Virus record (IMG/VR): IMGVR_UViG_3300025286_000007
Length of the DNA stretch: 64,000 nucleotides
DNA from: an uncultured virus (IMG/VR IMGVR_UViG_3300025286_000007)
Lineage: Duplodnaviria; Heunggongvirae; Uroviricota; Caudoviricetes
Reading direction: 5' to 3' (one strand)
This document shows, one piece after another, positions 24,075 through 54,587 of the stretch. The notes beneath the pieces are model-generated. The model did no database searches. It was not told the origin of the DNA and saw nothing but the letters and a program-made list of their open reading frames with translations. A program made the position numbers and the translations under genes. The first letter of the stretch is position 1, and each line of letters starts with the position of its first letter.

Positions 24075-24584
24075 ATGCCTAAAAAGTTTCCAGAAAAAGT
24101 TAGATTAAGCGCAATGGAACTGTATTTGAAGGGAGATCAGCCCGCAAAGGATATAGCTGCAACTATTTCTAAGACTTATAAGGTTAATGTAACTCCTTCT
24201 ACTATTTATTCGTGGGCACGATCTGCAAACTGGAAGAATACGCAGGTTGAAGCCCGAACAGAGGCCATGATTGCTGTACAGGAAAGAGAAAGTGTTCGCT
24301 TTTCTAGACTTCAAGATGAGCATTTAGATACATATGAACGGATAAGGCATCAGGCAGCGCATGAATTAGGGAATTTAAATTATACAAGAGCTTTTGATGC
24401 AGCTAAAGCGGTTGATTTAGGTATTCAAGGAGAAAGAAAAGTTATGGAGGGTTTAATAAATCTCCAGTTTGTACAGGATATTTTAGGGGTGTTGGTAGAA
24501 GAGATTAATGATCAAGAAGTTCTTAAGCGGATTTCCTTAAGAATGAAAGGTTTGATGCAAAATAGGTCAGATAATGGCAATTAA
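24075..24584 (+). CDS. Terminase small subunit (HTH)
   Basis: N-terminal HTH (KDIAATIS...STIYSW); overlaps the terminase large subunit; TAGTATAAA upstream at 24033. Confidence 0.7.
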   Translation: MPKKFPEKVRLSAMELYLKGDQPAKDIAATISKTYKVNVTPSTIYSWARSANWKNTQVEARTEAMIAVQERESVRFSRLQDEHLDTYERIRHQAAHELGNLNYTRAFDAAKAVDLGIQGERKVMEGLINLQFVQDILGVLVEEINDQEVLKRISLRMKGLMQNRSDNGN

Positions 24585-26274
24585 AGATGGTGTAACTACT
24601 TTTGCAAAAGCATTTGATGTGTTAGCACAAGGATTGCAAACTTATCAGCATATACGGATGGGAAGTTTCTGGGAATTTTTAAGAGATGTATGGTCTCAGG
24701 GATTTGATCATCCAGAATATTTTCAAGCGTGGCATATCGGAATTTTAGCAGAAGATATTGAAAAAGCTTTGGAAGAGGGTAAACATTATGTTGCAGTATT
24801 GCCTCGCTTTCATTTTAAATCGACTATATTGGGTCATGCATTTAGTATTTGGCAAATATTACGATCAACCAGAAATTGTTCTATTTTATATTTATCATAC
24901 AGTGATGGAATGGCTAAATACCATATTAATGAGATTAATAAAACGATTGCGAGAAATTTTACATTAAAGGAGATGTTTGTAAGTAAAAATCCAAAAGCGG
25001 ATTTTTCTTTTAGATATACCGTAAATAATAAGCCAGTAGAGATTATGCATGGGGGTCTTTTTTCATTTAAAAGAGGTATGCACGTTAATGGCGCTTTAAT
25101 TGCGGATGACGTATTACGTGATCCAGAAAATCCGTTGAATCCTGCGCAGCTTACTAAAGTTGAAGATCATTTTTTAACAGAGAGTTTGTTTATTCCATTA
25201 AAAGATGTACCAATAATAGTACTGGGAACTCCTATGATGCCCGGTGATTTATTAACAAAATTACAACATGATGAGAGATTTAATAGTAGGGTTCTTCCCG
25301 CTCTTGATCCTACACCGACTCGTAGGGTACTTATGCCGGAATTATATAGTGAGAAGTGGTTATTACAACAGAAAGAAGCTAGACCTAAGTCATTTGCTTC
25401 AGAGTTTATGTTGATTCCGCATTTTTCAACGGAATCATATTTTGAAGCTGAGGATATAGAGAAGTGTGAAGATAAGACTTTAAGAAACTTACCTGCAACA
25501 AAGGCTTATGAACCTGATGGACATGAAGATATTTTTGCTGGGTTTGATGTGGGAAAGAAAAGACACCCATCGCATTTAGTTATCTTTAGGCAAGTAGGAT
25601 CAAAAGTTGAACAGCTACATCAATCATGGTTAGATGGCTGGTCTTATACTGATCAGATTGAATATTTGAATGAGGTTGCAAAAAATTTTAACATTTTAAG
25701 GGGGTATATTGATAATACAAGAGGTGAACTAGAAGATAGGGGTTTAGCCAAGTCGTGGTATCCTATACATTTCACAACGAAGTCTAAAAATACTATGGCA
25801 CAGATTTTTGAACAGTATGTTCATTCAGGAAATTTGGCTTTACTTAAAGATGAAAGACAAAGACAACAGATTTTATCGGTAAATAATGAATTAAAAGCTC
25901 CAGAAACACCTTTGGGACATGGAGATGCATTCTTTTCGATTGCTATGGCTCTTCAAGCTGTTTATGAAACCAGTAATGGTAAATATGTATCACTAGGAAG
26001 TTTAACTGATTGGCAAGCAGCACTTTCTCCAGATACAGAGACTAATGAAAAAGCTATAAATATATCCATTGCGGATAATGTACGTCGAAAAGCGACAGTG
26101 GCAGAAAACGCAGATGTAGAAACTTCAAGATTTACTTTATCTTGGTTTGCTAATGATAGTAACGAAGAGGTTCAAGCTCCGAATCCCCATTGTGAAGAGG
26201 CAGTATGTATGGAGTCGTTTTGGGTTCCAGAACGAGGTTTATGTCTATATTGTGGATACAGAAGAAAGAATTAA
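24574..26274 (+). CDS. terL: Terminase large subunit
   Basis: ATPase PRFHFKST, IADD, LGTP; nuclease AGFDVG, IDNT, HGDAF; C-terminal Cys finger. Confidence 0.88.
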   Translation: MAIKDGVTTFAKAFDVLAQGLQTYQHIRMGSFWEFLRDVWSQGFDHPEYFQAWHIGILAEDIEKALEEGKHYVAVLPRFHFKSTILGHAFSIWQILRSTRNCSILYLSYSDGMAKYHINEINKTIARNFTLKEMFVSKNPKADFSFRYTVNNKPVEIMHGGLFSFKRGMHVNGALIADDVLRDPENPLNPAQLTKVEDHFLTESLFIPLKDVPIIVLGTPMMPGDLLTKLQHDERFNSRVLPALDPTPTRRVLMPELYSEKWLLQQKEARPKSFASEFMLIPHFSTESYFEAEDIEKCEDKTLRNLPATKAYEPDGHEDIFAGFDVGKKRHPSHLVIFRQVGSKVEQLHQSWLDGWSYTDQIEYLNEVAKNFNILRGYIDNTRGELEDRGLAKSWYPIHFTTKSKNTMAQIFEQYVHSGNLALLKDERQRQQILSVNNELKAPETPLGHGDAFFSIAMALQAVYETSNGKYVSLGSLTDWQAALSPDTETNEKAINISIADNVRRKATVAENADVETSRFTLSWFANDSNEEVQAPNPHCEEAVCMESFWVPERGLCLYCGYRRKN

Positions 26275-26298: not shown

Positions 26299-28185
26299 AT
26301 GATCACGGCGCAAGAACTTTTAGTTAAGTCCAATCCTGTTAGTATGCTATCAGAACAAGCGAAAATAGTATTGGGACACAGGTATTTTTTGAAGAATCAA
26401 GATAATACTATTATTGAAGATGGGGATGAACTTTTTAGGAGAGTCGCAAAAGCAATTTCTGTTATAGATATTGAGTATTATGCGTTGTCGGTTGAAGCAG
26501 AACTGTTAGAAAACGACTTTTTTACTATGATGAGTAAGTTAGAATTTCTTCCTAATTCACCAACATTAATGAATGCTGGAACAGAACAGGGCACATTATC
26601 GGCATGTTTTGTTTTGCCCTTGGACGATTCTATGCAAGATATTATGAAGGCTGCAACCGACACAGCTATGGTTCAGAAATTTGGGGGTGGTACTGGCTTC
26701 GCTTTGTCTCAGATTCGACCTCGTGGAGATAAGATAAAGACAACTCATGGCATGGCTTGTGGCCCTATAGAGGTATTAAAAACCCTGTCACGAGTATCTT
26801 CCATGATTACACAAGGGGGAAAAAGAGATGGGGCAAATATGGCGGTCATGTCGGTTTATCATCCCGACATTCTTAATTTTATTAGTTGTAAGTCTGTTGA
26901 AGGTGAAATTCATAATTTCAATATTTCCGTGGGCGTGGACTCAAGGTGGATGGACTATGTATTAACTAATAGTGAGTATCCGTTAATTAATCCTGCTACT
27001 AAGGAACTAGTTGGGTATTTAAATGCACGAGAAGTTTTTAACACTATAGTAGCTGGTGCATGGAAAAACGGTGAACCGGGTATGATTTTCTTAGATCAAG
27101 TTAATAAAGATAATCATGTTATTGATACTTATGGAGAAATGCTTGCTACAAATCCTTGTGGTGAACAACCTTTGTTAGGTAATGAGTCTTGTAATTTAGG
27201 GTCTCTAAATTTGGCTAAATTCTTTGAGCCTGAACCAATAAGTGGTGCATGGTATAATAAAATCAACTGGCGGACATTAGAAAAGGTAACTAGATTAGCA
27301 ACACACTTTTTGGATAATGTAATTGATGCTAATTATTATGCTACCCCTGATATTGAGGAGATGACTAAGGCTACTCGTAAGATTGGTCTTGGTGTTATGG
27401 GCTTTGCTGATTTACTTATTCAGATGAAGATTCCATATGACTCAGAGTTAGCACGAAAAGTTGGGCAGCGTGTAATGAAAGATATTAGAAAATGGTCTGA
27501 TAATGAATCCTTAAAATTAGGAGTATTACGAGGAACATTTCCTGCATGGAACAATAGTAATTATGATAAAATAACTGAAGCTTTTAGGAATCATTGTCGT
27601 TTGACAGTTGCTCCTACTGGAACTATTTCTATGATTGCTGATACTTCTAGCGGTATCGAGCCTACTTTTGCTTTGGCCTGGCAAAAGCAAAATATTCTCG
27701 AAGGTAAAACCTTGACTTATGTGAATAAGTATTTTGAAGTGGATGCTAGAAATTACGGTTTTTATTCTGAGGAATTAATGGGTTATCTAGCTGAAGGAGG
27801 TTCTCTCCAAGAGCGTAAAGATGTTCCTCAATGGATTAAGAAGGTTTATGTTACGGCCCCCGAGATTTCTCCTAGTAATCATGTTTTGATGCAAGCAGCA
27901 TTTCAGGAGTCTGTCGATTCAGGGATATCTAAAACAATTAATTTTGCAAATAGTGCGACTCATAAAGATGTTGAGGATGCATATATGTTAGCGTGGACTA
28001 CAGGATGTAAAGGCATTACTGTTTACAGGGCTGGTAGTAGAGATAAGGAAGTCTTAGTTAAAGGTAATCGTGATTCTATTTCTAATAAGATAGAGGAAGC
28101 TTGTTGTGAAAATCCGTACATTGTTATGGAATCTGGATGCCAAGTATGTAAGACTTGTGGATGGAGCGCATGTTTAGTAGCTTAA
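26299..28185 (+). CDS. nrdJ: Class II (B12-dependent) ribonucleotide reductase
   Basis: PNSPTLMNAG, SACFV, GGGTG, TNPCGEQ, CNLGS, APTGT, SKTIN; C-terminal Cys pairs; no beta subunit in the window. Confidence 0.93.
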   Translation: MITAQELLVKSNPVSMLSEQAKIVLGHRYFLKNQDNTIIEDGDELFRRVAKAISVIDIEYYALSVEAELLENDFFTMMSKLEFLPNSPTLMNAGTEQGTLSACFVLPLDDSMQDIMKAATDTAMVQKFGGGTGFALSQIRPRGDKIKTTHGMACGPIEVLKTLSRVSSMITQGGKRDGANMAVMSVYHPDILNFISCKSVEGEIHNFNISVGVDSRWMDYVLTNSEYPLINPATKELVGYLNAREVFNTIVAGAWKNGEPGMIFLDQVNKDNHVIDTYGEMLATNPCGEQPLLGNESCNLGSLNLAKFFEPEPISGAWYNKINWRTLEKVTRLATHFLDNVIDANYYATPDIEEMTKATRKIGLGVMGFADLLIQMKIPYDSELARKVGQRVMKDIRKWSDNESLKLGVLRGTFPAWNNSNYDKITEAFRNHCRLTVAPTGTISMIADTSSGIEPTFALAWQKQNILEGKTLTYVNKYFEVDARNYGFYSEELMGYLAEGGSLQERKDVPQWIKKVYVTAPEISPSNHVLMQAAFQESVDSGISKTINFANSATHKDVEDAYMLAWTTGCKGITVYRAGSRDKEVLVKGNRDSISNKIEEACCENPYIVMESGCQVCKTCGWSACLVA

Positions 28186-30616: not shown

Positions 30617-32329
30617 ATGAAATTATCAGATTATCTACCTGAAGTTCCAGCATTTGCTCAACAAATGAGTGCTTTAAGTAATCAAATTAACCAGTTTCAG
30701 TTAATGAAAGCTGCTGGGGATACAGGACAAGCCCCAACAATTGGTCTAGACCATGTAGTTAATACATGGGTTCGTCATCAAATGGCGTATAGACAGCAAT
30801 TGGTTATGGACTTACAGACTATTTGCATGACGGTAGAGGAAATACGCTCTCCATTAAGTCATATAACGAATGAAGTATTCAGGAGAGGCTTACAATGGAA
30901 ACCTTTGATAGCCGATCCAGATGAAAGTCAACTAGAAGTTTTTAGTAAATTTCTAAAAGACTGTAATGTCTTTGATCAAAGTTTGGAAGAAGTTATGAGA
31001 CAATTTCACTTTGATGTAAATTCTATAGATGATGGTTTTATATATCTTGCTAAAGAATATTATAGTTCTGGAGATGGTTTATTACGGTCTAAGGTTAAAG
31101 AGATTCGTAGACTGAACCCATCTTTGGTAGAATTTGACTTAGATGTTTCCGGTTTGCCTAAGAACGCTCATTTCCTTTGTCCTATACATAGAGAGCAAGT
31201 TAAAGATACGCCTCAAAGCTGTGATCAACACGGCTGTGTTAGACAATGTCAACCAGTTATGTATAAATACTATCATCGTAATCAACAAATTTATTTATTT
31301 GATTCTGAAGTAATCCATATGACTAAGTTCTCTCCTTCCGAAACGTATGGCTGGTCGCCAATATTAACAATCTTTGAAAAAGCACTAACGTTGATTGGAA
31401 TGGATAAGAATCTTTATAGGTATTTCTTTGAGAGAAAGATGCCAGCTTCTATGGTTATGGTAACGACTGATGATCCTGAGAGTTTGAGAAGGGAACGAGC
31501 TAACATAGCGGCTCAGACACGGCTTGACCCTAACTATATTCCTATGATTGCTGTTTCAGCTAGGAATCAGCGAGGTAGAGTAGATATGGTACGCCTCTTC
31601 CACACTCTACAAGAAATGGACTATCTACCAGTTAGGGAGGAAATTAGGGAAAGGGTTGCAGCTATGTGGGGAGTTACTCCTGCATGGCAAGGCGCACCAG
31701 ATGCTTTTGGTGGGTTGTCTAGTCAAACACAGCAACTAGTCGTTATGAGTCGTGTGGTTGAAGCAGATCAACGATTATTTCATGAAAAAGTATTTCCTGT
31801 TCTATTAGACGCTTTTGGAATTACAGATTGGGCCTTAGTTCTTCCTAATCCAGAGGAGAAGGCTGAAGCAACTAAAATTAGTTTTGCTCAACAGAAGGTT
31901 CAAGTTGCTAATGCGTTAGCTCAATTAGGATTTACTATTACCTTAAAACAACAAGGAAGTGATTTAGGAGACGTAGATTTTTCTATAAGTGGTGAATATG
32001 TACCTACGGCTCAGATGCAAGGAGAACAAATGGGTATGCAAATTGCACAACAAGAACAGCAATTCCAGATGCAACAGCAGCAACAGGAACAACAACAGCA
32101 GCAAATAGCGGCTGCTCAAGAGCAAGCTAATCAAACAGGTGAACCTGTGGAGGTTGATGTTGGCGGTGGTGGCGAAGGCGGTGGTGGTGAAGCTGAGATA
32201 CAGGCCATGCTTAAGGCTGATGATGATTCCCATAACTCAGATAAACTTTCTGAATCTGAAAAGATGCGAAAACTTAGTGACGCCTTAATGCATGAGGAAA
32301 TGTATCCTGATCAAGACGAGGAAGAATAA
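30617..32329 (+). CDS. Portal protein (HK97-like) with a Cys/His insertion and a Q/E-rich tail
   Basis: EVIH...YGWSPI, YRYFFERKMP, DYL..REEI..RVAAMWGVTP. Confidence 0.8.
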   Translation: MKLSDYLPEVPAFAQQMSALSNQINQFQLMKAAGDTGQAPTIGLDHVVNTWVRHQMAYRQQLVMDLQTICMTVEEIRSPLSHITNEVFRRGLQWKPLIADPDESQLEVFSKFLKDCNVFDQSLEEVMRQFHFDVNSIDDGFIYLAKEYYSSGDGLLRSKVKEIRRLNPSLVEFDLDVSGLPKNAHFLCPIHREQVKDTPQSCDQHGCVRQCQPVMYKYYHRNQQIYLFDSEVIHMTKFSPSETYGWSPILTIFEKALTLIGMDKNLYRYFFERKMPASMVMVTTDDPESLRRERANIAAQTRLDPNYIPMIAVSARNQRGRVDMVRLFHTLQEMDYLPVREEIRERVAAMWGVTPAWQGAPDAFGGLSSQTQQLVVMSRVVEADQRLFHEKVFPVLLDAFGITDWALVLPNPEEKAEATKISFAQQKVQVANALAQLGFTITLKQQGSDLGDVDFSISGEYVPTAQMQGEQMGMQIAQQEQQFQMQQQQQEQQQQQIAAAQEQANQTGEPVEVDVGGGGEGGGGEAEIQAMLKADDDSHNSDKLSESEKMRKLSDALMHEEMYPDQDEEE

Positions 32330-35300
32330 TGACTACTTTTAATGAGGAGGTAAGTGGAGAATATCAACAAGAAGAAAAACCAATTGTAACCATTACTGAC
32401 GAGAGTCTACAACTTCCTAAAGATCAACGTTTATATATTAATTCTAATGAGCTTCGTGACTATGCTGGAATGGGGTTGGCAATCTATGAAGGGCCAAGAA
32501 AAGGAGAGTATGTAGATAGAAGTTTATTGGATGATAAAGGGAAACCTACAAAAGTGCCAATTGACTATGAGCAATATCATTATGTAGATACTCGTAGGCA
32601 TTGGCTTAAACAGCATATCAACCAATATCCACCTAAAGCTACTGGGCCTCTTATATTTAGAAATCAAGAAACAGGAAGTATGGAGACTATTGACTTAGAG
32701 ACGTTACATCCTGTTCCTAATCATACTCCTAATTTATATCGGTATACTCAAGATGGTAAAGTAGTAGAGCTTCCTGCTGGTATCGCTCATTATGATAGTG
32801 AAGGTAATAAATTATCTCCCCATAAAGATGAACGTGATCGCCCTATTATTATTCAACAGACTCAAGCTCTTATTCTAAATGCTTATCGTGATCAGAAAGT
32901 ACCTAACAATGCCACCAATGTGTTTGTGGCTGGAAATGAAACTTCTGAAATACAAGCAATCTATCGGAATGTACAAGGAAAACAACAGGTAATCTTTTCT
33001 CCAGAAGAGGCTAAGAGAAGAAAAGATGTTCATTGGAAGAACCAACTTGAGGCTAGGAAAAGTGCAGATGACTTAATAGATACCTTATCTGCGGATATTG
33101 ACAATATAGATACTTGGTCGGAAAATGATCAAGTTATTTTATTAATTGGTCGGATGGGTTTTCGTCATGGAGGGGATACTATTAGTTTTCTTGCAGCCAA
33201 TGAGGAAGAGCAAAAAAAGAATGGGGCAACAAGCCCTCAAAATACAGGAGAACGTACTGGAATAGGTGCATCATCCTTAATAGCTAAGGAAGTATCTATT
33301 CAAGACGATGGTTCCGTAAGGTTCCAGTTTTTAGGGAAGAGTAAAATTCCTCACGATCATGTATCAACTGATCCCTTAGTTAAACGAATTGTACAACAGG
33401 CGTTGCGTGGGAAACAGTCAGGAGAGCAACTCTTTCCAAGAGCTAACACGAAACAAAATCTAAATAGATTACGAAAACTTACTGGCAATAAGCGCATGGA
33501 AATAAAAGACATTAGAACTTATATTGGAACTTCTATTGCTAGGGATTTAGTTAAACAAGAAATCGCTAATCGTGGAGGTAGGACTACGACTACGGAGGAG
33601 TTTAAGGAAGCATTAAAACGAATTTCTATAGAAGTAGGTAAAGCATTAGGACATAAAAGTGGGAGTAGAGATAAAGACACTGGAGAAATGATGTATGAAG
33701 ATATAGGAACAACGGCTCTTAAGTATTATATTGATCCTGTAGTTTGGCAAGATTTAGCTCCCGAAGGTACAGTCGAAAAACTTATGAAAATGGTAAAGAA
33801 TTTACAGACTCTCTCTAAAACTCTTCCTCCAAATGCAATATACTCTTCAACTGAAGCCCCTCCTAAAGGAGCTATGACATTTGTAACAGAAGAGCGAGAA
33901 GCAGAGTATTGGTTACAACCTACAGAAGTCTTTCCTCAAACTCCAAATGTACAAGAGGTAATTGATGCTAATCCACAAGCACAACAGATTTTACAGGACT
34001 TAGGACAACAAGGAACACCGTATGTAGTAGGTGGTGGTGTACGAGATATTTTGCTAGGTAAACCTAGTAAAGATATAGATATTGAAATGCATGGAGTTCC
34101 TATGGATAAATTAGGCCAGCTTATGGAAAAACATGGGGGGAAATCAGAACAAGTAGGTAAACAGTTTGGAGTGTTTAAAGTGGGTGATGTAGATGTCTCA
34201 TTACCTAGAACAGAGACTAAAACAGGGACTAAACATACAGATTTTGATGTTCAAGTACATACATCATTGCCATTAAAACAAGCAGCACGTAGAAGGGACT
34301 TTACTATGAATGCTTTGATGTATGATGTAAAGAATCATAAGGTCATAGACTTTTTTGGTGGGCATGATGATATCGTAGCTAAAAAAATTAAACATGTTGA
34401 CGATAAAACCTTTGTAGAAGACCCATTGCGTGTTTATAGAGCGGCACAATTTGCAGGAAGATTTGGTTTTTCAATTGATGATTCGACCAAAAAGTTAGCT
34501 CAGTCTATGGATTTATCAGATTTACCAAAAGAAAGAATTTTTGATGAGATGTCAAAACTGTTATTAAAATCTCCATCACCTTCGGTAGGTTTGCAAGCGT
34601 TAGAAGATATGGGAGTTTTTAATCAACAAATGACAGAATTAAAGGATTTACGAGATACAATACAACGAGATGATTTTCACGCTGAAGGAGATGTATTTAC
34701 TCATACAAAAATGGTTATCGATGAAGCCGCACGAGTTAGTAAGCGATTTGAACGAGAAAAAGATCGACATATCATTATGTTATCTGCCTTACTCCATGAT
34801 ATAGGTAAGCCAGCGACTACTAATGAACGTGGTTTATCGCATGGACATTCCGAAGCTGGCACGGAACCCGCGAGGCAATTTTTAGAGAGATTAACTACAG
34901 ATAAAGAAATTATAGATACTGTTGTACAGATAGTAGAACTTCATTTAGTTCCATTACAGTACCATCATCAGAGAGAAGAACTAAAAGATTCCACTTTAAG
35001 AAGGATGATTAATAAACACGGAACGCATTTCCTTAATCTACTATCAGCCGTTTCCGAAGCAGATGCTCTTGGTAGACGCCATAGACAACCTGATGGTAGT
35101 ACAATAAAACCTACGAATGAGGCTAATGAATGGTTTAGAGCGAATATTAAACGAGTGTCTGAAGAAAGTGGTAGTACACCAGAAGGAAGAATTAAACCGT
35201 TAGTGACTGGTAATGACCTACTTGATTTAGGTTTTGTACAAGGCAGACGAATTGGGGAAGTACTACAAGATATTAAGAGACAGCAAGAAGAAGGTAAATT

Positions 35301-35829
35301 GACGGATAAGAAAGAAGCCCTTGATTATATTCAGGGTATCCATAAATCTTATGTCAGTGAATATTTCTTGAAGGCTAAAGGTAAATATAAGGGACGAACA
35401 GGTGGAATAACACCTGATTGGACAATGAAATTACCCGGTGAGGAAAGAGATATAGATGAATGGACAGAAGCTCGTAGAAAGAAAGCAGAGGAACGCCAGT
35501 GGGGAATTAAACCTGTAGGTGGACAGCCGATGGCTAAAACATGGATAGGTTCACTAGCTGATAAAGGATTTATATATCCGTTAATTAAGCAGGTTCTAGG
35601 TTCTCAGATGTGGTTTGCGCAAGATGGAATTGACTATATAGCTAATTTAGGAACGAATGAAGATGAGTTAGTCACTTCTGTAGATAAAGCAATATTTACC
35701 TATAATAAACCTAGTGTATCTTATGCGCCTTCTGGACGAAATAATCAGAATACAAAGAGGAAAAGTTCAGGTAAGCAAGGAGAGAGATATCAAGGAGATA
35801 TTATAGACGATGAGGAGGACGATTATTAA
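32329..35829 (+). CDS. Multidomain fusion: DNA topoisomerase IB + CCA-adding tRNA nucleotidyltransferase with HD domain
   Basis: TopoIB pentad GFR, LGK, KDIRT, LGH, KYYIDP (about 32890-33760); VVGGGVRD, DID, RRDFTMNAL, EDPLR, HAEGDVFTH, LLHDIGK, TGNDL (about 33970-35340). Confidence 0.88.
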   Translation: MTTFNEEVSGEYQQEEKPIVTITDESLQLPKDQRLYINSNELRDYAGMGLAIYEGPRKGEYVDRSLLDDKGKPTKVPIDYEQYHYVDTRRHWLKQHINQYPPKATGPLIFRNQETGSMETIDLETLHPVPNHTPNLYRYTQDGKVVELPAGIAHYDSEGNKLSPHKDERDRPIIIQQTQALILNAYRDQKVPNNATNVFVAGNETSEIQAIYRNVQGKQQVIFSPEEAKRRKDVHWKNQLEARKSADDLIDTLSADIDNIDTWSENDQVILLIGRMGFRHGGDTISFLAANEEEQKKNGATSPQNTGERTGIGASSLIAKEVSIQDDGSVRFQFLGKSKIPHDHVSTDPLVKRIVQQALRGKQSGEQLFPRANTKQNLNRLRKLTGNKRMEIKDIRTYIGTSIARDLVKQEIANRGGRTTTTEEFKEALKRISIEVGKALGHKSGSRDKDTGEMMYEDIGTTALKYYIDPVVWQDLAPEGTVEKLMKMVKNLQTLSKTLPPNAIYSSTEAPPKGAMTFVTEEREAEYWLQPTEVFPQTPNVQEVIDANPQAQQILQDLGQQGTPYVVGGGVRDILLGKPSKDIDIEMHGVPMDKLGQLMEKHGGKSEQVGKQFGVFKVGDVDVSLPRTETKTGTKHTDFDVQVHTSLPLKQAARRRDFTMNALMYDVKNHKVIDFFGGHDDIVAKKIKHVDDKTFVEDPLRVYRAAQFAGRFGFSIDDSTKKLAQSMDLSDLPKERIFDEMSKLLLKSPSPSVGLQALEDMGVFNQQMTELKDLRDTIQRDDFHAEGDVFTHTKMVIDEAARVSKRFEREKDRHIIMLSALLHDIGKPATTNERGLSHGHSEAGTEPARQFLERLTTDKEIIDTVVQIVELHLVPLQYHHQREELKDSTLRRMINKHGTHFLNLLSAVSEADALGRRHRQPDGSTIKPTNEANEWFRANIKRVSEESGSTPEGRIKPLVTGNDLLDLGFVQGRRIGEVLQDIKRQQEEGKLTDKKEALDYIQGIHKSYVSEYFLKAKGKYKGRTGGITPDWTMKLPGEERDIDEWTEARRKKAEERQWGIKPVGGQPMAKTWIGSLADKGFIYPLIKQVLGSQMWFAQDGIDYIANLGTNEDELVTSVDKAIFTYNKPSVSYAPSGRNNQNTKRKSSGKQGERYQGDIIDDEEDDY

Positions 35830-38166: not shown

Positions 38167-38455
38167 AATTGTTGTACAAAAGATACCTTGGCCTTTTCCT
38201 AAGTATGTTCATGCTGTAACACTGTGGCCCTTTATTTTTTATGAATGGGGGATTAAAGATGATCCAGCTATTCAAGCACATGAGAGATATCATTGGAATG
38301 ATCAGAAGAAATGGTTGGTTGTGCCTTGGTTTATAGCGTATATATGTTTACTGCCTTTTTATGGAGGAAGTAGAAGACACCCAATGGAAAAACCAGCATA
38401 CGAATTACAAGATAAAATTAATAGTTATAAGAAAGAAGAGAAGAGTTATGGTTGA
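38159..38455 (+). CDS. Small HExxH metallopeptidase-like protein
   Basis: AVTLWPFIF..HERYH..Q...PMEKPAY. Confidence 0.55.
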   Translation: MIEIVVQKIPWPFPKYVHAVTLWPFIFYEWGIKDDPAIQAHERYHWNDQKKWLVVPWFIAYICLLPFYGGSRRHPMEKPAYELQDKINSYKKEEKSYG

Positions 38456-38765
38456 TATAGTTAATGTTACTCGTGAAGACGTTATTGAGGCATTGAAGGA
38501 CGTTTATGACCCAGAGATACCTGTCAACGTAGTAGACCTTGGCCTTATATACGAGGTTCATGTGACCCCTGAAAATTCTGTGTATGTTATGATGACCCTT
38601 ACTGCCGCTGGCTGCGGCATGGGGCCATACATAGCCCAGCAAGCTGAGTGGCGCATAACTGAAGTGGAGGGTGTAGAGAATGTATATGTTGATATGGTTT
38701 TTGATCCTCCATGGAACCCAGGAAAGATTACTGAAGACGGAAAAATGCTGCTTGGTATTGATTAG
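38448..38765 (+). CDS. SufT/DUF59 Fe-S cluster assembly protein
   Basis: ALKDVYDPEIPVNVVDLGLIY, MTLTAAGC, FDPPW; likely start ATG 38448. Confidence 0.9.
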   Translation: MVDIVNVTREDVIEALKDVYDPEIPVNVVDLGLIYEVHVTPENSVYVMMTLTAAGCGMGPYIAQQAEWRITEVEGVENVYVDMVFDPPWNPGKITEDGKMLLGID

Positions 38766-38782: not shown

Positions 38783-39427
38783 ATGAATGTTGAATTAATA
38801 GATAGTATGGGATCAGATTTAACTGTAGTAAATGCTGCTAGAGTATCATTCGATAAACATCATGAGGGGGTGACGGCTGGAGATGAAAAACTTATTGCAT
38901 ATCTTGCGAATCATAGTCATTGGACACCATTCGGACATCCCCAATTATAGTTCCGAATCTCTGCTCCTATATTTGTCGCTAGGCAACTAGTCAAACACCA
39001 AGTTGGCCTAGTATGGAATGAAATAAGTAGGCGGTATGTAGACTATACTCCTACTTTTGATATACCTTCTAAGTGGAGAGACCGCCCTAAAAATCGTAAA
39101 CAAGGGTCAGGAATAAATTTTATACAATTGGATGAAAAAAATGTTACCGATATAGAACTTCTTCATGCTAAAAGTGTTGAATTGTATTTTAAATTAATTG
39201 AACAGGGGGTAGCACCAGAACAAGCAAGAGCTATTCTTCCTCAAGATATGATCACAGAATGGTATTGGACAGGAAGTTTAGCGGCTTTTGCTAGAGTGTG
39301 TATATTAAGATTATCTGAAGATTCTCAAGATGAAACTAGACAAGTAGCGCAAAAAATATCAAATTTTATTTTAGAACTATTTCCAGTTAGTTGGAAATAC
39401 TTACTGGAAAAACGGATGCTTCATTGA
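38783..39427 (+). pseudogene. thyX: Flavin-dependent thymidylate synthase ThyX with one in-frame TAG at codon 56
   Basis: MGSDLTVVNAARVSF..HWTPFGHPQL*FRISAPIFVARQLVKH..WNEISRRY..APEQARAILPQ..WYWTGSL; TAG at 38948-38950. Confidence 0.85.
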
Positions 39428-41585: not shown

Positions 41586-42923
41586 ATGGCTAATCCATCC
41601 CTAGCGGAATATTTAGCCCAATCGCAACGTGGACTGTATCAGTCAGTCTTCGGCCCAGAGTACTTGATGAAGCAGACGTACTTCACGGTTGATACTGCTA
41701 CTGGTATTTTTAACACTACGTATGGGCGTAAGGTGTGGCAAGCCCTGAATAACCAAACACGCTTTTTCAATGCCATTCCCAGAACGGTCTGGGGTAACAC
41801 GGCTGGTTGGCGTGTAAGGACGGACAGGGGTTCGGGACGATCCCGACCTGTGACAGAGACCGGCTCTCTTCCGACAGTTGATATTTCCAACATTGAGACC
41901 GTATCGAGCTTGCCTCGTGTAGTCTCTACGACTTTTGGTGCCTCCGTGAAGTCAGTATTCACGGCGCAGCTAGAAGGCGGTGTTGGGGATGTGCTGGCGT
42001 TGGAGAACGAGAATGCACAGCTTGACCATGTCAAGGAAATTAACGAGGAACTTCTTGCAGGTTCCGCATATCTAGTATCTGCTGGTGCATCGACAACGTT
42101 TACCGTTCCAGCAGCTATTGCAAAACATTTTAAAATCGGTGATGCAGTTGGAATGAATAACGTTGGTACTGGATTCGACAGGACTTCTGGTTCTGCTGTT
42201 TCCGCAGTTAACACTTCTACTGGTGTAGTAACTGTTGCTAGCGGTACTGCCTATGCCGATGGTGACGTAGCATTCATCTACAGTCGGGCTGGCCTAACTT
42301 CCATTGATGACATCGTTATGGAAGACGGAGCGGTTGTGGGTGGTGGTTCTGGTGGGGCCAACGTTAGGGCTTATGACTTAACTCAGGCTGGCAGGACGGC
42401 GGGTGATTGGAATGCTGGTGCTAGTGTTTCATATAACTCAGGTACGGGACGAGACTTGTCTCTAAACCTACTTGACACAGCTATTCAGAAGATTAGGGAG
42501 AATGGTGGAGAGCCGAAACTGATTCTTCTTGGGCATGACCAGTACTTTAAGCTAGAGAGGCTTTTGAACTCTAACCAGAGGTACATGGGACAGGAGGAGT
42601 ATCAGGTAGGTATCGGTTCAGAGCGAACTTTCCCCGGCACTCGAACTGGTCTTGTGTTAGCTACGTATCAGGGAATTCCAATTCTTCCAGATGCTGATGT
42701 GCCGAAGTCGGTTTCGACTGCGGATGCGGTGTTGGGAAGTAACGTCTATGTTTTAGATACAGACTATCTTGAAATTGCAGTTGCTCAACCTACTCAGTAT
42801 GTTGAGAACCGTGACTACTTCGCAGCCAATGCGCTAGTGGTTCGTGGTTTGCTATATACCATGGCAGAAATGCGATGCAAGAACATCTTTGTTCAAGCTA
42901 AGATTGCAGACTTGAACACTTAA
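41586..42923 (+). CDS. Major capsid protein (HK97 fold, with an inserted domain)
   Basis: Strong RBS and high-expression codon bias; ETGSLP, YQGIPILPD, YVLDTDYL motifs; followed by a hairpin. Confidence 0.8.
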   Translation: MANPSLAEYLAQSQRGLYQSVFGPEYLMKQTYFTVDTATGIFNTTYGRKVWQALNNQTRFFNAIPRTVWGNTAGWRVRTDRGSGRSRPVTETGSLPTVDISNIETVSSLPRVVSTTFGASVKSVFTAQLEGGVGDVLALENENAQLDHVKEINEELLAGSAYLVSAGASTTFTVPAAIAKHFKIGDAVGMNNVGTGFDRTSGSAVSAVNTSTGVVTVASGTAYADGDVAFIYSRAGLTSIDDIVMEDGAVVGGGSGGANVRAYDLTQAGRTAGDWNAGASVSYNSGTGRDLSLNLLDTAIQKIRENGGEPKLILLGHDQYFKLERLLNSNQRYMGQEEYQVGIGSERTFPGTRTGLVLATYQGIPILPDADVPKSVSTADAVLGSNVYVLDTDYLEIAVAQPTQYVENRDYFAANALVVRGLLYTMAEMRCKNIFVQAKIADLNT

Positions 42924-52913: not shown

Positions 52914-52997
52914 GCCTCTGTGGTGGAACGGTAGACACGCTTGGTTTAAGCCCAAGTGCCAAAAGGCGTGAAGGTTCGATTCCTTCCAGAGGCACCA
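52914..52997 (+). tRNA. tRNA-Leu (anticodon TAA) with encoded CCA
   Basis: Acceptor GCCTCTG/CAGAGGC; anticodon arm CTTGG-TTTAAGC-CCAAG; long variable arm; GGTTCGATTCC T-arm; ACCA end. Confidence 0.95.
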
Positions 52998-53707: not shown

Positions 53708-53929
53708 ATGAGACTTGTTTTAGACCCAAGAAGAAAAGAGGATACGGTACTAGGGTTCGAGTGGCTTGAGCCAGTGAGTTATGGATATGACAAAGAGGGC
53801 ATACTTCAAACCATACTGTGTAAAGGACTCATGTCTGACAATTCAGTAAGTCTGATTGATATCCAAGAGCCAGAACTTTCAGAAGACTTAATGATGAATT
53901 ACACTGTATGGGATAACACTAATGTGTAA
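53708..53929 (+). CDS. Hypothetical protein
   Basis: GAGGAG RBS. Confidence 0.55.
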   Translation: MRLVLDPRRKEDTVLGFEWLEPVSYGYDKEGILQTILCKGLMSDNSVSLIDIQEPELSEDLMMNYTVWDNTNV

Positions 53930-54587
53930 GCCTATAGTTAGAAAGATAACAAAGAAGGAAGCAGAATCATTACTTCATCCCTATCATTATTTGACAAAGG
54001 AAAGCAAAGGTTTTAGGACAGGCTATAATTATGGTGCATTCATTGATGATGTTTTACAGGCTGTCTGTATATTTCATAATCCTTCTGTTCCTGAGTTGGT
54101 GAAGGGGTGCTTCGGTTTGACACGAACCGATCAACGTGGTATACTTGAACTTGGGCGATTAGTAAAACATCCGTCTGCCAACGGCAGTTTAATACTGTCT
54201 CAATTTGTAGCAATGGCTATGAAAGAGGTACGTAAGGAACTGGACGTTAGAGCTATTCTTAGCTATGCAGATTCTCGCTACCACGCAGGGTATATATATC
54301 AATCTTTAAACTTTATGTATTATGGACTCACAGACCCTAAAAGCGATTGGTGGTTTGAACAAGAGGATGGCACTTTTCTTAAACATACTAGAGGCAAGGT
54401 AAAAGGTAGTAAAGGAGAATGGAGACACCGACCAAGAAAACATAGATATTTATTAGTTTTTGACAAGACTCTTCAAACGAAGTGGCTTCCAAAAGTCTAT
54501 CCTAAAAAAGATAATAAGGAGTATACGTATTATGATTGCAGTAAAGAACAAGTTGATTATCGAATCAAAATATCTAGCACAGTTTGA
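53922..54587 (+). CDS. Mom-like (GNAT-fold) DNA modification protein
   Basis: YHYL, ELGRL, ILSYAD..H.GYIYQ.LNF.Y.G, RPRKHRY. Confidence 0.75.
   Translation: MCKPIVRKITKKEAESLLHPYHYLTKESKGFRTGYNYGAFIDDVLQAVCIFHNPSVPELVKGCFGLTRTDQRGILELGRLVKHPSANGSLILSQFVAMAMKEVRKELDVRAILSYADSRYHAGYIYQSLNFMYYGLTDPKSDWWFEQEDGTFLKHTRGKVKGSKGEWRHRPRKHRYLLVFDKTLQTKWLPKVYPKKDNKEYTYYDCSKEQVDYRIKISSTV

Follow-up and report, generated by a model that had tools for sequence, protein, structure and literature searches.

Among the closest described systems are the polyvalent proteins, in which, as outlined by Iyer et al. 2017 (PMC5512222), PBECR, 2H and InPase domains are found fused to portal or MuF proteins, and which are argued in that account to be packaged and injected; the term CCA is absent from its main text, where topoisomerase occurs in a reference title only. 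Forterre and Gadelle 2009 (PMC2647321) proposed that the bacterial topoisomerases IB come from an undiscovered viral group, and a jumbo-phage survey (PMC7824862) interprets the CCA enzymes of phages as serving RNA repair. Here we analyze a 64,000-nucleotide stretch of the genome of an uncultured tailed virus (IMG/VR record IMGVR_UViG_3300025286_000007; hereafter, the window), in which the portal gene is followed by a single open reading frame (ORF) for a protein of 1166 amino acids (aa), denoted P0001. This protein consists, in this order, of an N-terminal domain (N-domain), a type IB topoisomerase, a short tag, a CCA-type nucleotidyltransferase with an HD domain (CCA/HD), and a C-terminal module (C-module) homologous to the C-terminal domain of the portals of related phages. 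The identities of these domains appear practically certain. On balance, we lean towards the reading that P0001 is a polyvalent cargo protein that was inserted into the portal gene and would be delivered by the virion.

The split portal gene

The last 168 residues of P0001 were used to scan IMG/VR, which yielded 54 loci (the search patterns derive from the window, and the set is therefore biased towards its relatives); ORFs were called in all these loci and searched with the window proteins. In 43 of the 54, the C-module is the portal's own C-terminus (complete ORFs of 641-676 aa), whereas in five loci (L001-L005) it ends a topoisomerase-CCA/HD protein, and in four others (L006, L009, L040 and L054) a topoisomerase-only protein that follows a shortened portal. 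The remaining two loci encode it as a separate ORF of about 205 aa (L008:563-1177 and L010:7881-8501), which overlaps the portal end and could reflect either a frameshift or a real split.

The window portal is shorter than the 641-676 aa portals of its relatives, to which its core is 68-87% identical, and its BLAST alignments with the fused portals end near residues 467-515. The missing part is recovered at the end of P0001, where the C-module shows 41-64% identity to the C-termini of eight portals in BLAST comparisons, and a multiple alignment agrees. Across the junction, unsplit portals read ...GGGEA..IQAMEKA..(R)KFKGRTGG.TPDW..., the window portal reads ...GGGGEAEIQAMLKA and continues into 36 new acidic residues, and P0001 regains portal sequence at ...YFLKA-KGKYKGRTGGITPDW; the precise break lies between ...IQAM.KA and KGKYKGRTGG. 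The junction is identical in every split variant, and a new acidic tail has been acquired by each of the shortened portals. In the DNA alignment, homology to the unsplit portal gene of L007 stops after AAGGCT (Leu-Lys-Ala) on the left and restarts after AAGGCT on the right of the insert, from which the last 36 portal codons (32219-32326), encoding the acidic tail, are derived. These alignments indicate that the insert splits the portal gene and that the enzyme chain inherits the C-terminal module of the portal.

P0001 is translated with no internal stop across its 1166 residues. Its start codon overlaps the portal stop codon (TAATG, with GAGGA upstream), and a second TAATG joins its end to the start of the next, post-portal gene. 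That such an ORF is an assembly artefact or a fusion caused by a sequencing frameshift is an explanation for which we found nothing beyond the metagenomic nature of the source. The 90% cluster of P0001 represents 18 contigs, and an identical or near-identical full-length ORF is present in IMG/VR contigs from other samples (L002 and L003). Logan contigs from four further runs, none of them flagged as a possible source of the window, cover 30 of 30 bins with zero indels and zero joints; their pieces span nucleotides (nt) 32329, 35349 and 35829, such that every module border is bridged. The continuity of the ORF, as claimed in the original prediction, is thus supported by contig-level evidence, an assembly chimera or frameshift artefact is excluded as far as contigs show, and we assign this explanation a negligible probability. 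The same fusion, sought in phage metagenomes, was found to recur, with the whole architecture kept in homologues at 87, 78, 63 and 59% identity; a word-based homologue search with residues 1-540 returned a single fragment.

Two other explanations of the split gene were considered and rejected. Programmed frameshifting from the portal into P0001 is incompatible with a stop codon located 18 nt upstream of the ATG in the frame of the ORF, and no slippery heptamer was seen; an intein in the portal is incompatible with the stop and the frame change at 32327-32331, and no Hint domain was found in Pfam. No portal joined to cargo in a single polypeptide was found among 10 long portal homologues, which is weak evidence of absence. 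These 10 proteins are interrupted within the portal core, and four of them (P0176, P0177, P0178 and P0180; 1040-1347 aa) carry intein or LAGLIDADG homing endonuclease domains near window-portal residues 135, 188, 252-277 and 370; such interruptions differ in kind from the cargo insert. Apart from these, a stop codon breaks the portal gene in L046 and the exonuclease gene in L047. In run X9, one contig departs from the window at position 32186 and continues in the portal frame as ...EAIQAAILKA, like L005; a related strain from the same water apparently parts from the window within the portal linker, shortly before the junction with the insert.

Enzyme domains and the apparent exchange of cargo

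The topoisomerase part of P0001 matches the Pfam family Topoisom_I (PF01028; residues 309-446, E-value (E) 9e-15, 55 bits against a cut-off of 23.7) and the unannotated PHROG family phrog_23460. All five residues of the catalytic pentad (R279, K337, R396, H442 and Y467), originally predicted to form a complete type IB set, are present, and all 12 complete homologues, whose identity ranges over 32-89%, retain them. A profile of 13 homologues aligns residues 185-428 to the topoisomerase IB of D. radiodurans (2f4q, E 1.9e-7), taking in the small N-terminal domain and three of the five catalytic positions (FR.G, GK and KD.RT). For the AlphaFold model of residues 1-540 (mean predicted local distance difference test (pLDDT) score 66.6), the top Foldseek match in the PDB is the variola virus topoisomerase (2h7f, E 2e-11), and further matches are bacterial, archaeal and human topoisomerases IB, including 2f4q (E 1e-9), with target-normalised template-modelling (TM) scores of about 0.5. 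Both the Pfam search and the model bear out the domain assignment, and, given the conserved residues, this part looks like an active topoisomerase IB of the poxvirus/bacterial type. Readings as a telomere resolvase or an integrase were rejected because topoisomerases IB occupy the first 22 ranks among the structural matches and no recombinase scores better than E 1e-2. Among 50,697 cultured-phage records, the topoisomerase part has one weak match, in Burkholderia phage BCSR5 (E 2e-4); no match to the C-module was found among cultured phages. The topoisomerase of locus L057 (L057:7135-10887; Pfam Topoisom_I E 1.5e-13) has HNFRH in place of KDIRT, which is like the HxxR box of tyrosine recombinases.

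The N-domain accompanies the topoisomerase in all topoisomerase-bearing variants, with invariant residues that include P30, R34, Y36, W92 and VPNH at 129-132. It has no match in Pfam, and the ESM Atlas gave nothing usable.

In the CCA/HD part, Pfam detects PolyA_pol head (residues 565-687, E 5e-23), PolyA_pol_RNAbd (713-771), HD (PF01966; 789-879, E 9e-10) and tRNA_NucTran2_2 (846-998); the HDIG model also matches, as does phrog_2244 (tRNA nucleotidyltransferase, E 7e-77). The nucleotidyltransferase motifs GGGVRD (568), DIDIE (582), RRDF (655) and EDPLR (697) and the HD signature H784...HD823 are all intact, so that the earlier call of a class II CCA nucleotidyltransferase with an HD domain stands, and this part, too, looks active by its motifs. 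The top NCBIfam model, NF008137 ('multifunctional CCA addition/repair protein'), reaches 192.7 bits, where an equivalog would need 451, and we assign P0001 to the Cca family by sequence without calling it an equivalog. In the PDB, the chains that match this part best by sequence bear the names poly(A) polymerase and CCA-adding enzyme; some of those named poly(A) polymerase we take to be A- and CC-adding enzymes. Stand-alone CCA enzymes are common in phages (469 matching records among the 50,697); none of these 469 records covers at least 80% of P0001. The window also encodes a tRNA-Leu(taa) that ends in ACCA, in agreement with the prediction that CCA is encoded in this phage tRNA; one such tRNA is a thin argument for repair over maturation.

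The tag was found, in local iterative jackhmmer searches, in 22 of the 429 proteins gathered here. Two copies of it are present in P0008, P0009, P0013 and the L057 protein, flanking CCA/HD in P0008 and P0013, and the tag precedes other cargo in P0007, P0019 and P0031. In P0007 and P0019, the C-module is combined with a different middle of about 500 aa that has no assigned identity; for the P0007 insert, the ESM Atlas gave a weak lead (score 0.90, 144 shared features), which was not used, to clusters with a lethal-factor-type metallopeptidase family in a minority of their members. P0031 carries a peptidase-like module on the same C-module (Peptidase_Mx1, 25.1 bits, just under the Pfam cut-off of 25.6). 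The alternative cargo of the relatives at this site is topoisomerase alone, topoisomerase combined with an unassigned module, or the peptidase-like module. In the model, the tag is mostly disordered (pLDDT below 50 at residues 499-540), and possible roles for it are in recombination (as a joint), in docking (as a peptide) or in cleavage by a protease. Its similarity to the start of the C-module falls short of significance, with the score attained in 61 of 2000 shuffles.

On its own, CCA/HD (49-61% identical) is present in many other giant proteins, and 29 of the best 150 representatives in an exhaustive search are at least 900 aa long; a second locus scan, with the CCA/HD module, yielded only six close relatives. 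Pfam scans of 38 homologues for accompanying domains identified MuF in P0023 and P0044 above the cut-off and in P0022 below it; ART-PolyVal in P0017 and P0044 and, just under the cut-off, in P0052; ADP-ribosyltransferase exoenzyme domains in P0021 and P0024; Acb1 in P0052; a methyltransferase in P0008; and DUF192 in P0020. P0009 and P0011 combine CCA/HD with topoisomerase IB in the reversed order. The suggestion that this domain pairing is unknown from any protein accordingly holds for cultured phages and for the literature searched, but not for metagenomic proteins, where the pairing recurs in both orders. P0001 itself gave no match to Phage_Mu_F (PF04233) at E <= 0.1 in Pfam, and the proposed route through a MuF/gp7-type minor head protein is abandoned, no MuF/gp7 domain having been detected at that threshold.

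The modules of P0001 differ widely in conservation. Compared to L005, identity is 87% in the portal, 29% in the N-domain, 39% in the topoisomerase, 77% in CCA/HD and 83% in the C-module; compared to L006, which has no CCA/HD, the values for the portal, N-domain, topoisomerase and C-module are 87, 31, 33 and 81%. In homologues of 656-716 aa, which also lack CCA/HD, the N-domain and topoisomerase (28-36%) are joined straight to the last ~150 residues (78-90%). Sequence identities of this kind indicate that the middle is exchanged, or evolves independently of the conserved flanks, with the catalytic residues fixed, and the mosaic pattern fits a cargo slot exchanged between such flanks.

This pattern bears on another explanation, namely, that the insert is a selfish cassette in which topoisomerase IB, an enzyme with tyrosine-recombinase chemistry, serves as its own site-specific mobility enzyme and would direct it to the portal linker. 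The AAGGCT/LKA duplication on both flanks, the single junction common to all split lineages, the divergence of the topoisomerase, which far exceeds that of the flanks, and the HxxRH-like motif at the KDIRT position in L057 are in line with such an element. However, the duplicated segment belongs to the coding sequence of the portal and extends further in L040 (IQKA), a pattern that fits recombination rather than a short target duplication; the composition of the insert equals that of the genome (GC 0.37 compared to 0.38 for the window); the best structural matches are true topoisomerases IB, with recombinases nine orders of magnitude worse; and the cassette continues in frame into a conserved module and brings a second enzyme along. 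We know of no mobile element based on topoisomerase IB, which also counts against this explanation, and, altogether, we consider it quite improbable.

The product of the post-portal gene (denoted d289) belongs to a family that adjoins the portal in most of the relatives, with one large ORF in between in some of them. Members of this family are 246-763 aa long, with variable inserts, carry a PAP2 phosphatase domain in L017, L023 and L028, and share the core motif TVFTSTN..F.PTYG...KKKRTGIERLG; the post-portal protein may be a second cargo carrier. L057 has an unsplit portal of 655 aa that bears a C-module of its own (44% identity), and the next gene encodes a 1250-aa protein in which a topoisomerase IB with 26% identity and a CCA/HD cassette with 77% identity are built onto a d289 backbone: regions corresponding to d289 residues 100-150 and 170-195 flank the cassette, and the post-portal homologue of L038 aligns to the last 160 residues at 52%. 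Large ORFs of 1195-2091 aa are also located behind unsplit portals in L023:8450-12940, L028:8459-12046 and L034:8717-14992, beginning on the portal stop codon in L023 and L028; none of the three has a match in Pfam, and those of L023 and L028 have none in PHROG either.

Proposed virion delivery and its alternatives

The virion-delivery reading is supported indirectly by the fact that P0001 ends in a domain of its relatives' portals and by the recurrence of its cassette in MuF- and ART-bearing polyvalent proteins. In solved portal structures, the C-termini face the capsid interior, so that the inherited module would bring the enzyme chain to the usual site of this portal domain, presumably the portal vertex within the head. 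We regard the association of P0001 with the virion as somewhat more likely than not. Upon infection, the chain would leave the head along with the DNA, in analogy to polyvalent, MuF, portal-fused and internal head proteins, and to this ejection step we give somewhat less than an even chance. The topoisomerase would relieve torsional strain in the incoming genome for early transcription or replication, by analogy with the poxviruses; topoisomerase IB of vaccinia virus is packaged in the virion core and aids early transcription. The HD domain would clear blocking phosphates from 3' ends; where host defences have damaged tRNAs, their CCA ends would be rebuilt by the nucleotidyltransferase. Restoration of tRNA 3' ends is proposed, in part, because of the activities of E. 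coli-type Cca enzymes. Its other basis is the repair reading of phage CCA enzymes outlined in PMC7824862.

Several observations weigh against this reading. The structural model of the C-module is confident only for residues 71-130 of the 168 modelled (about 1069-1128 of P0001); the best PDB match of the fold, with Z 5.6, is within the noise, and there is no match in BFVD at E <= 0.001. Unsplit portals hold the C-module on a long linker rich in Q, G and E, and given this flexible linker and the existence of the module as a free ORF, the C-module need not bind the portal core and may bind something else. The enzyme pair of L057 lacks the portal module, which is therefore dispensable for the pair. 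Non-structural and metabolic genes are interspersed among the head genes, so that the post-portal position is weak evidence; with an NF008137 score below the equivalog cut-off, the nucleotidyltransferase may have CCA-, CC- or A-adding specificity; and we infer packaging, ejection and both enzymatic activities. A predicted complex of the portal with the C-module, run without controls, scored 0.00 and weighs neither for nor against binding.

The genomic context can also be accommodated by a different scenario, in which P0001 is a late enzyme that stays unpackaged in the cytoplasm, the insertion having landed in a tolerant, flexible portal linker. The detached C-module would keep its usual job, and the enzymes would serve DNA topology in replication or packaging as well as tRNA upkeep. 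The ribonucleotide reductase gene located between the terminase and portal genes, the exonuclease and ThyX fragment genes downstream, the 469 phage records that match stand-alone CCA enzymes, and the free C-module ORFs of L008 and L010 are all compatible with this scenario. It does not, however, readily explain why enzyme cargo is found repeatedly on the portal module or on the post-portal protein, or why the cassette co-occurs with MuF and ART-PolyVal domains, and we consider it unlikely, although worth keeping in view.

The window represents a tailed-phage genome of an uncultured marine lineage, with nearly all genes on the plus strand (Table 1). Its genes include those for a tail fibre, tail assembly, a sigma factor, DnaB, primase, DNA polymerase, a UvsX-like recombinase, a Cas4-like nuclease and RuvC; a gene for an SNase-like nuclease is located before the portal gene, and P0001 is followed by the 289-aa post-portal protein and then by an SbcD-like exonuclease. 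The closest portals from cultured viruses are those of the haloarchaeal tailed viruses HVTV-1 and HCTV-1/5 (~27% identity); the replication genes and the sigma factor of the window nevertheless look bacterial. A 99-aa ORF at 39128-39427 aligns with no more than the C-terminal region of ThyX (positions 117-191 of a 191-position profile) and may be a truncated or split thymidylate synthase gene. The prohead protease shows a weak match to the high-potential iron-sulfur protein domain (E 1.3e-4), and a gene at 38361-38765 encodes an Fe-S assembly protein. Modification of the phage DNA is suggested by a Mom-like DNA modification protein encoded at 53922-54587 (phrog_1384, E 3.5e-29).

Table 1. Features of the window discussed in the text (positions within the 64,000-nt stretch).
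Feature	Position	Strand	Basis or remark
Terminase	24574-26274		
Ribonucleotide reductase	26299-28185		between terminase and portal
Portal gene, 570 aa	30617..32329	+	phrog_18178 (E 7e-39); weak Phage_portal match
Insert of 3158 nt relative to the unsplit portal gene of L007	32219..35376	+	DNA alignment of both flanks
Multi-enzyme ORF P0001, 1166 aa	32329..35829	+	continuous translation, Pfam, PHROG, homologues
N-domain (residues 1-180), fold unassigned, beta-rich in model	32329..32868	+	homologue alignment and model
Type IB topoisomerase (residues ~185-475), small N-terminal beta domain and catalytic domain	32881..33753	+	Pfam, profile alignment, model
Tag of ~35-40 aa (residues 497-536), K.LPPNA.YSS.E.PPKG...TE...YW	33817..33936	+	opens the CCA/HD cassette
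Class II CCA-type nucleotidyltransferase and HD phosphohydrolase domain (residues 541-1007)	33949..35349	+	Pfam, PHROG, NCBIfam, motifs
C-module (residues 1017-1166), acidic tail at end	35377..35826	+	homology to the portal C-terminal domain of relatives
Post-portal protein d289, 289 aa	35829..36698	+	TAATG-coupled to P0001
SU10-like capsid protein	41586-42923		
Prohead protease, S78-type, 540 aa	44951-46573		
tRNA-Leu(taa)	52914..52997	+	ACCA end genome-encoded

Comparison with known systems

If the virion-delivery reading is correct, it would provide a concrete, testable route by which phages load arbitrary enzymes into the head via borrowed carriers, namely, the C-module of the portal or the post-portal protein, with tag-marked cassettes swapped from one to the other. 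Topoisomerase IB and CCA/HD tRNA-end repair would join the known repertoire of injected counter-defence functions, and tRNA-end repair would be in the cell from the first moment of infection. A topoisomerase IB of the poxvirus/bacterial type would be placed in tailed phages, which bears on the origin of the bacterial enzymes, as framed in the proposal outlined in PMC2647321; phage enzymes like P0001 are candidates for the viral source of the bacterial topoisomerases IB.

We also put forward, as a speculative extension that is rather unlikely to hold in its entirety, a more general scheme. The C-module and the post-portal protein would be general carriers for swapped, tag-delimited cassettes (topoisomerase IB, CCA/HD, PAP2 and peptidase-like), amounting to modular capsid loading in abundant uncultured marine phages. 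Topoisomerase IB, the most constant passenger, would be located at the portal vertex and act on the exiting DNA, and it may belong to the undiscovered viral group behind the bacterial enzymes.

Like the polyvalent proteins, P0001 combines at least two unrelated catalytic domains in one polypeptide encoded among the head genes of a phage with portal and terminase, and its cassettes are shuffled, with CCA/HD relatives sharing MuF, ART-PolyVal and Acb1. Unlike the fusions outlined in PMC5512222, it contains no MuF domain, and its cargo, instead of following a complete portal, lies between the portal core and the C-terminal module, with a stop and a start codon splitting the gene. The topoisomerases IB of poxviruses (variola 2h7f and vaccinia 1a41) are the best structural matches and have the same pentad; however, poxviruses are eukaryotic viruses and encode the enzyme as a separate protein of 314 aa, whereas the phage domain is embedded in a chain of 1166 aa, which adds the 180-aa N-domain and an insertion of about 30 aa after the first arginine. 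The closest solved structure by profile sequence search, with both domains aligned, is the topoisomerase IB of D. radiodurans (2f4q/3m4a), a free-standing cellular enzyme of 346 aa, in contrast to the fused domain of P0001. The CCA/HD part shares the class II head motifs A-D and the HD domain with E. coli-type Cca (NF008137) and phrog_2244 enzymes, but differs from them in being fused into a virion-locus protein and in scoring below the equivalog cut-off. In polymorphic toxins, pre-toxin motifs mark swappable C-terminal modules. The tag resembles these by analogy only, as a short motif that opens swappable modules between conserved carriers; here, the modules are not toxins, and the carriers are head proteins.

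No description of a phage topoisomerase IB, of a CCA enzyme within a polyvalent protein, of the pairing of the two or of a portal split in this way was found in the literature searched, at the level of listings and abstracts. Polyvalent and portal-linked phage effectors are already known as a kind. What P0001 and its relatives add to the literature searched are the two domain types and the combination of the two, an insertion that breaks up the portal gene and passes the C-module on to the cargo, and the tag-marked exchange between two carriers.

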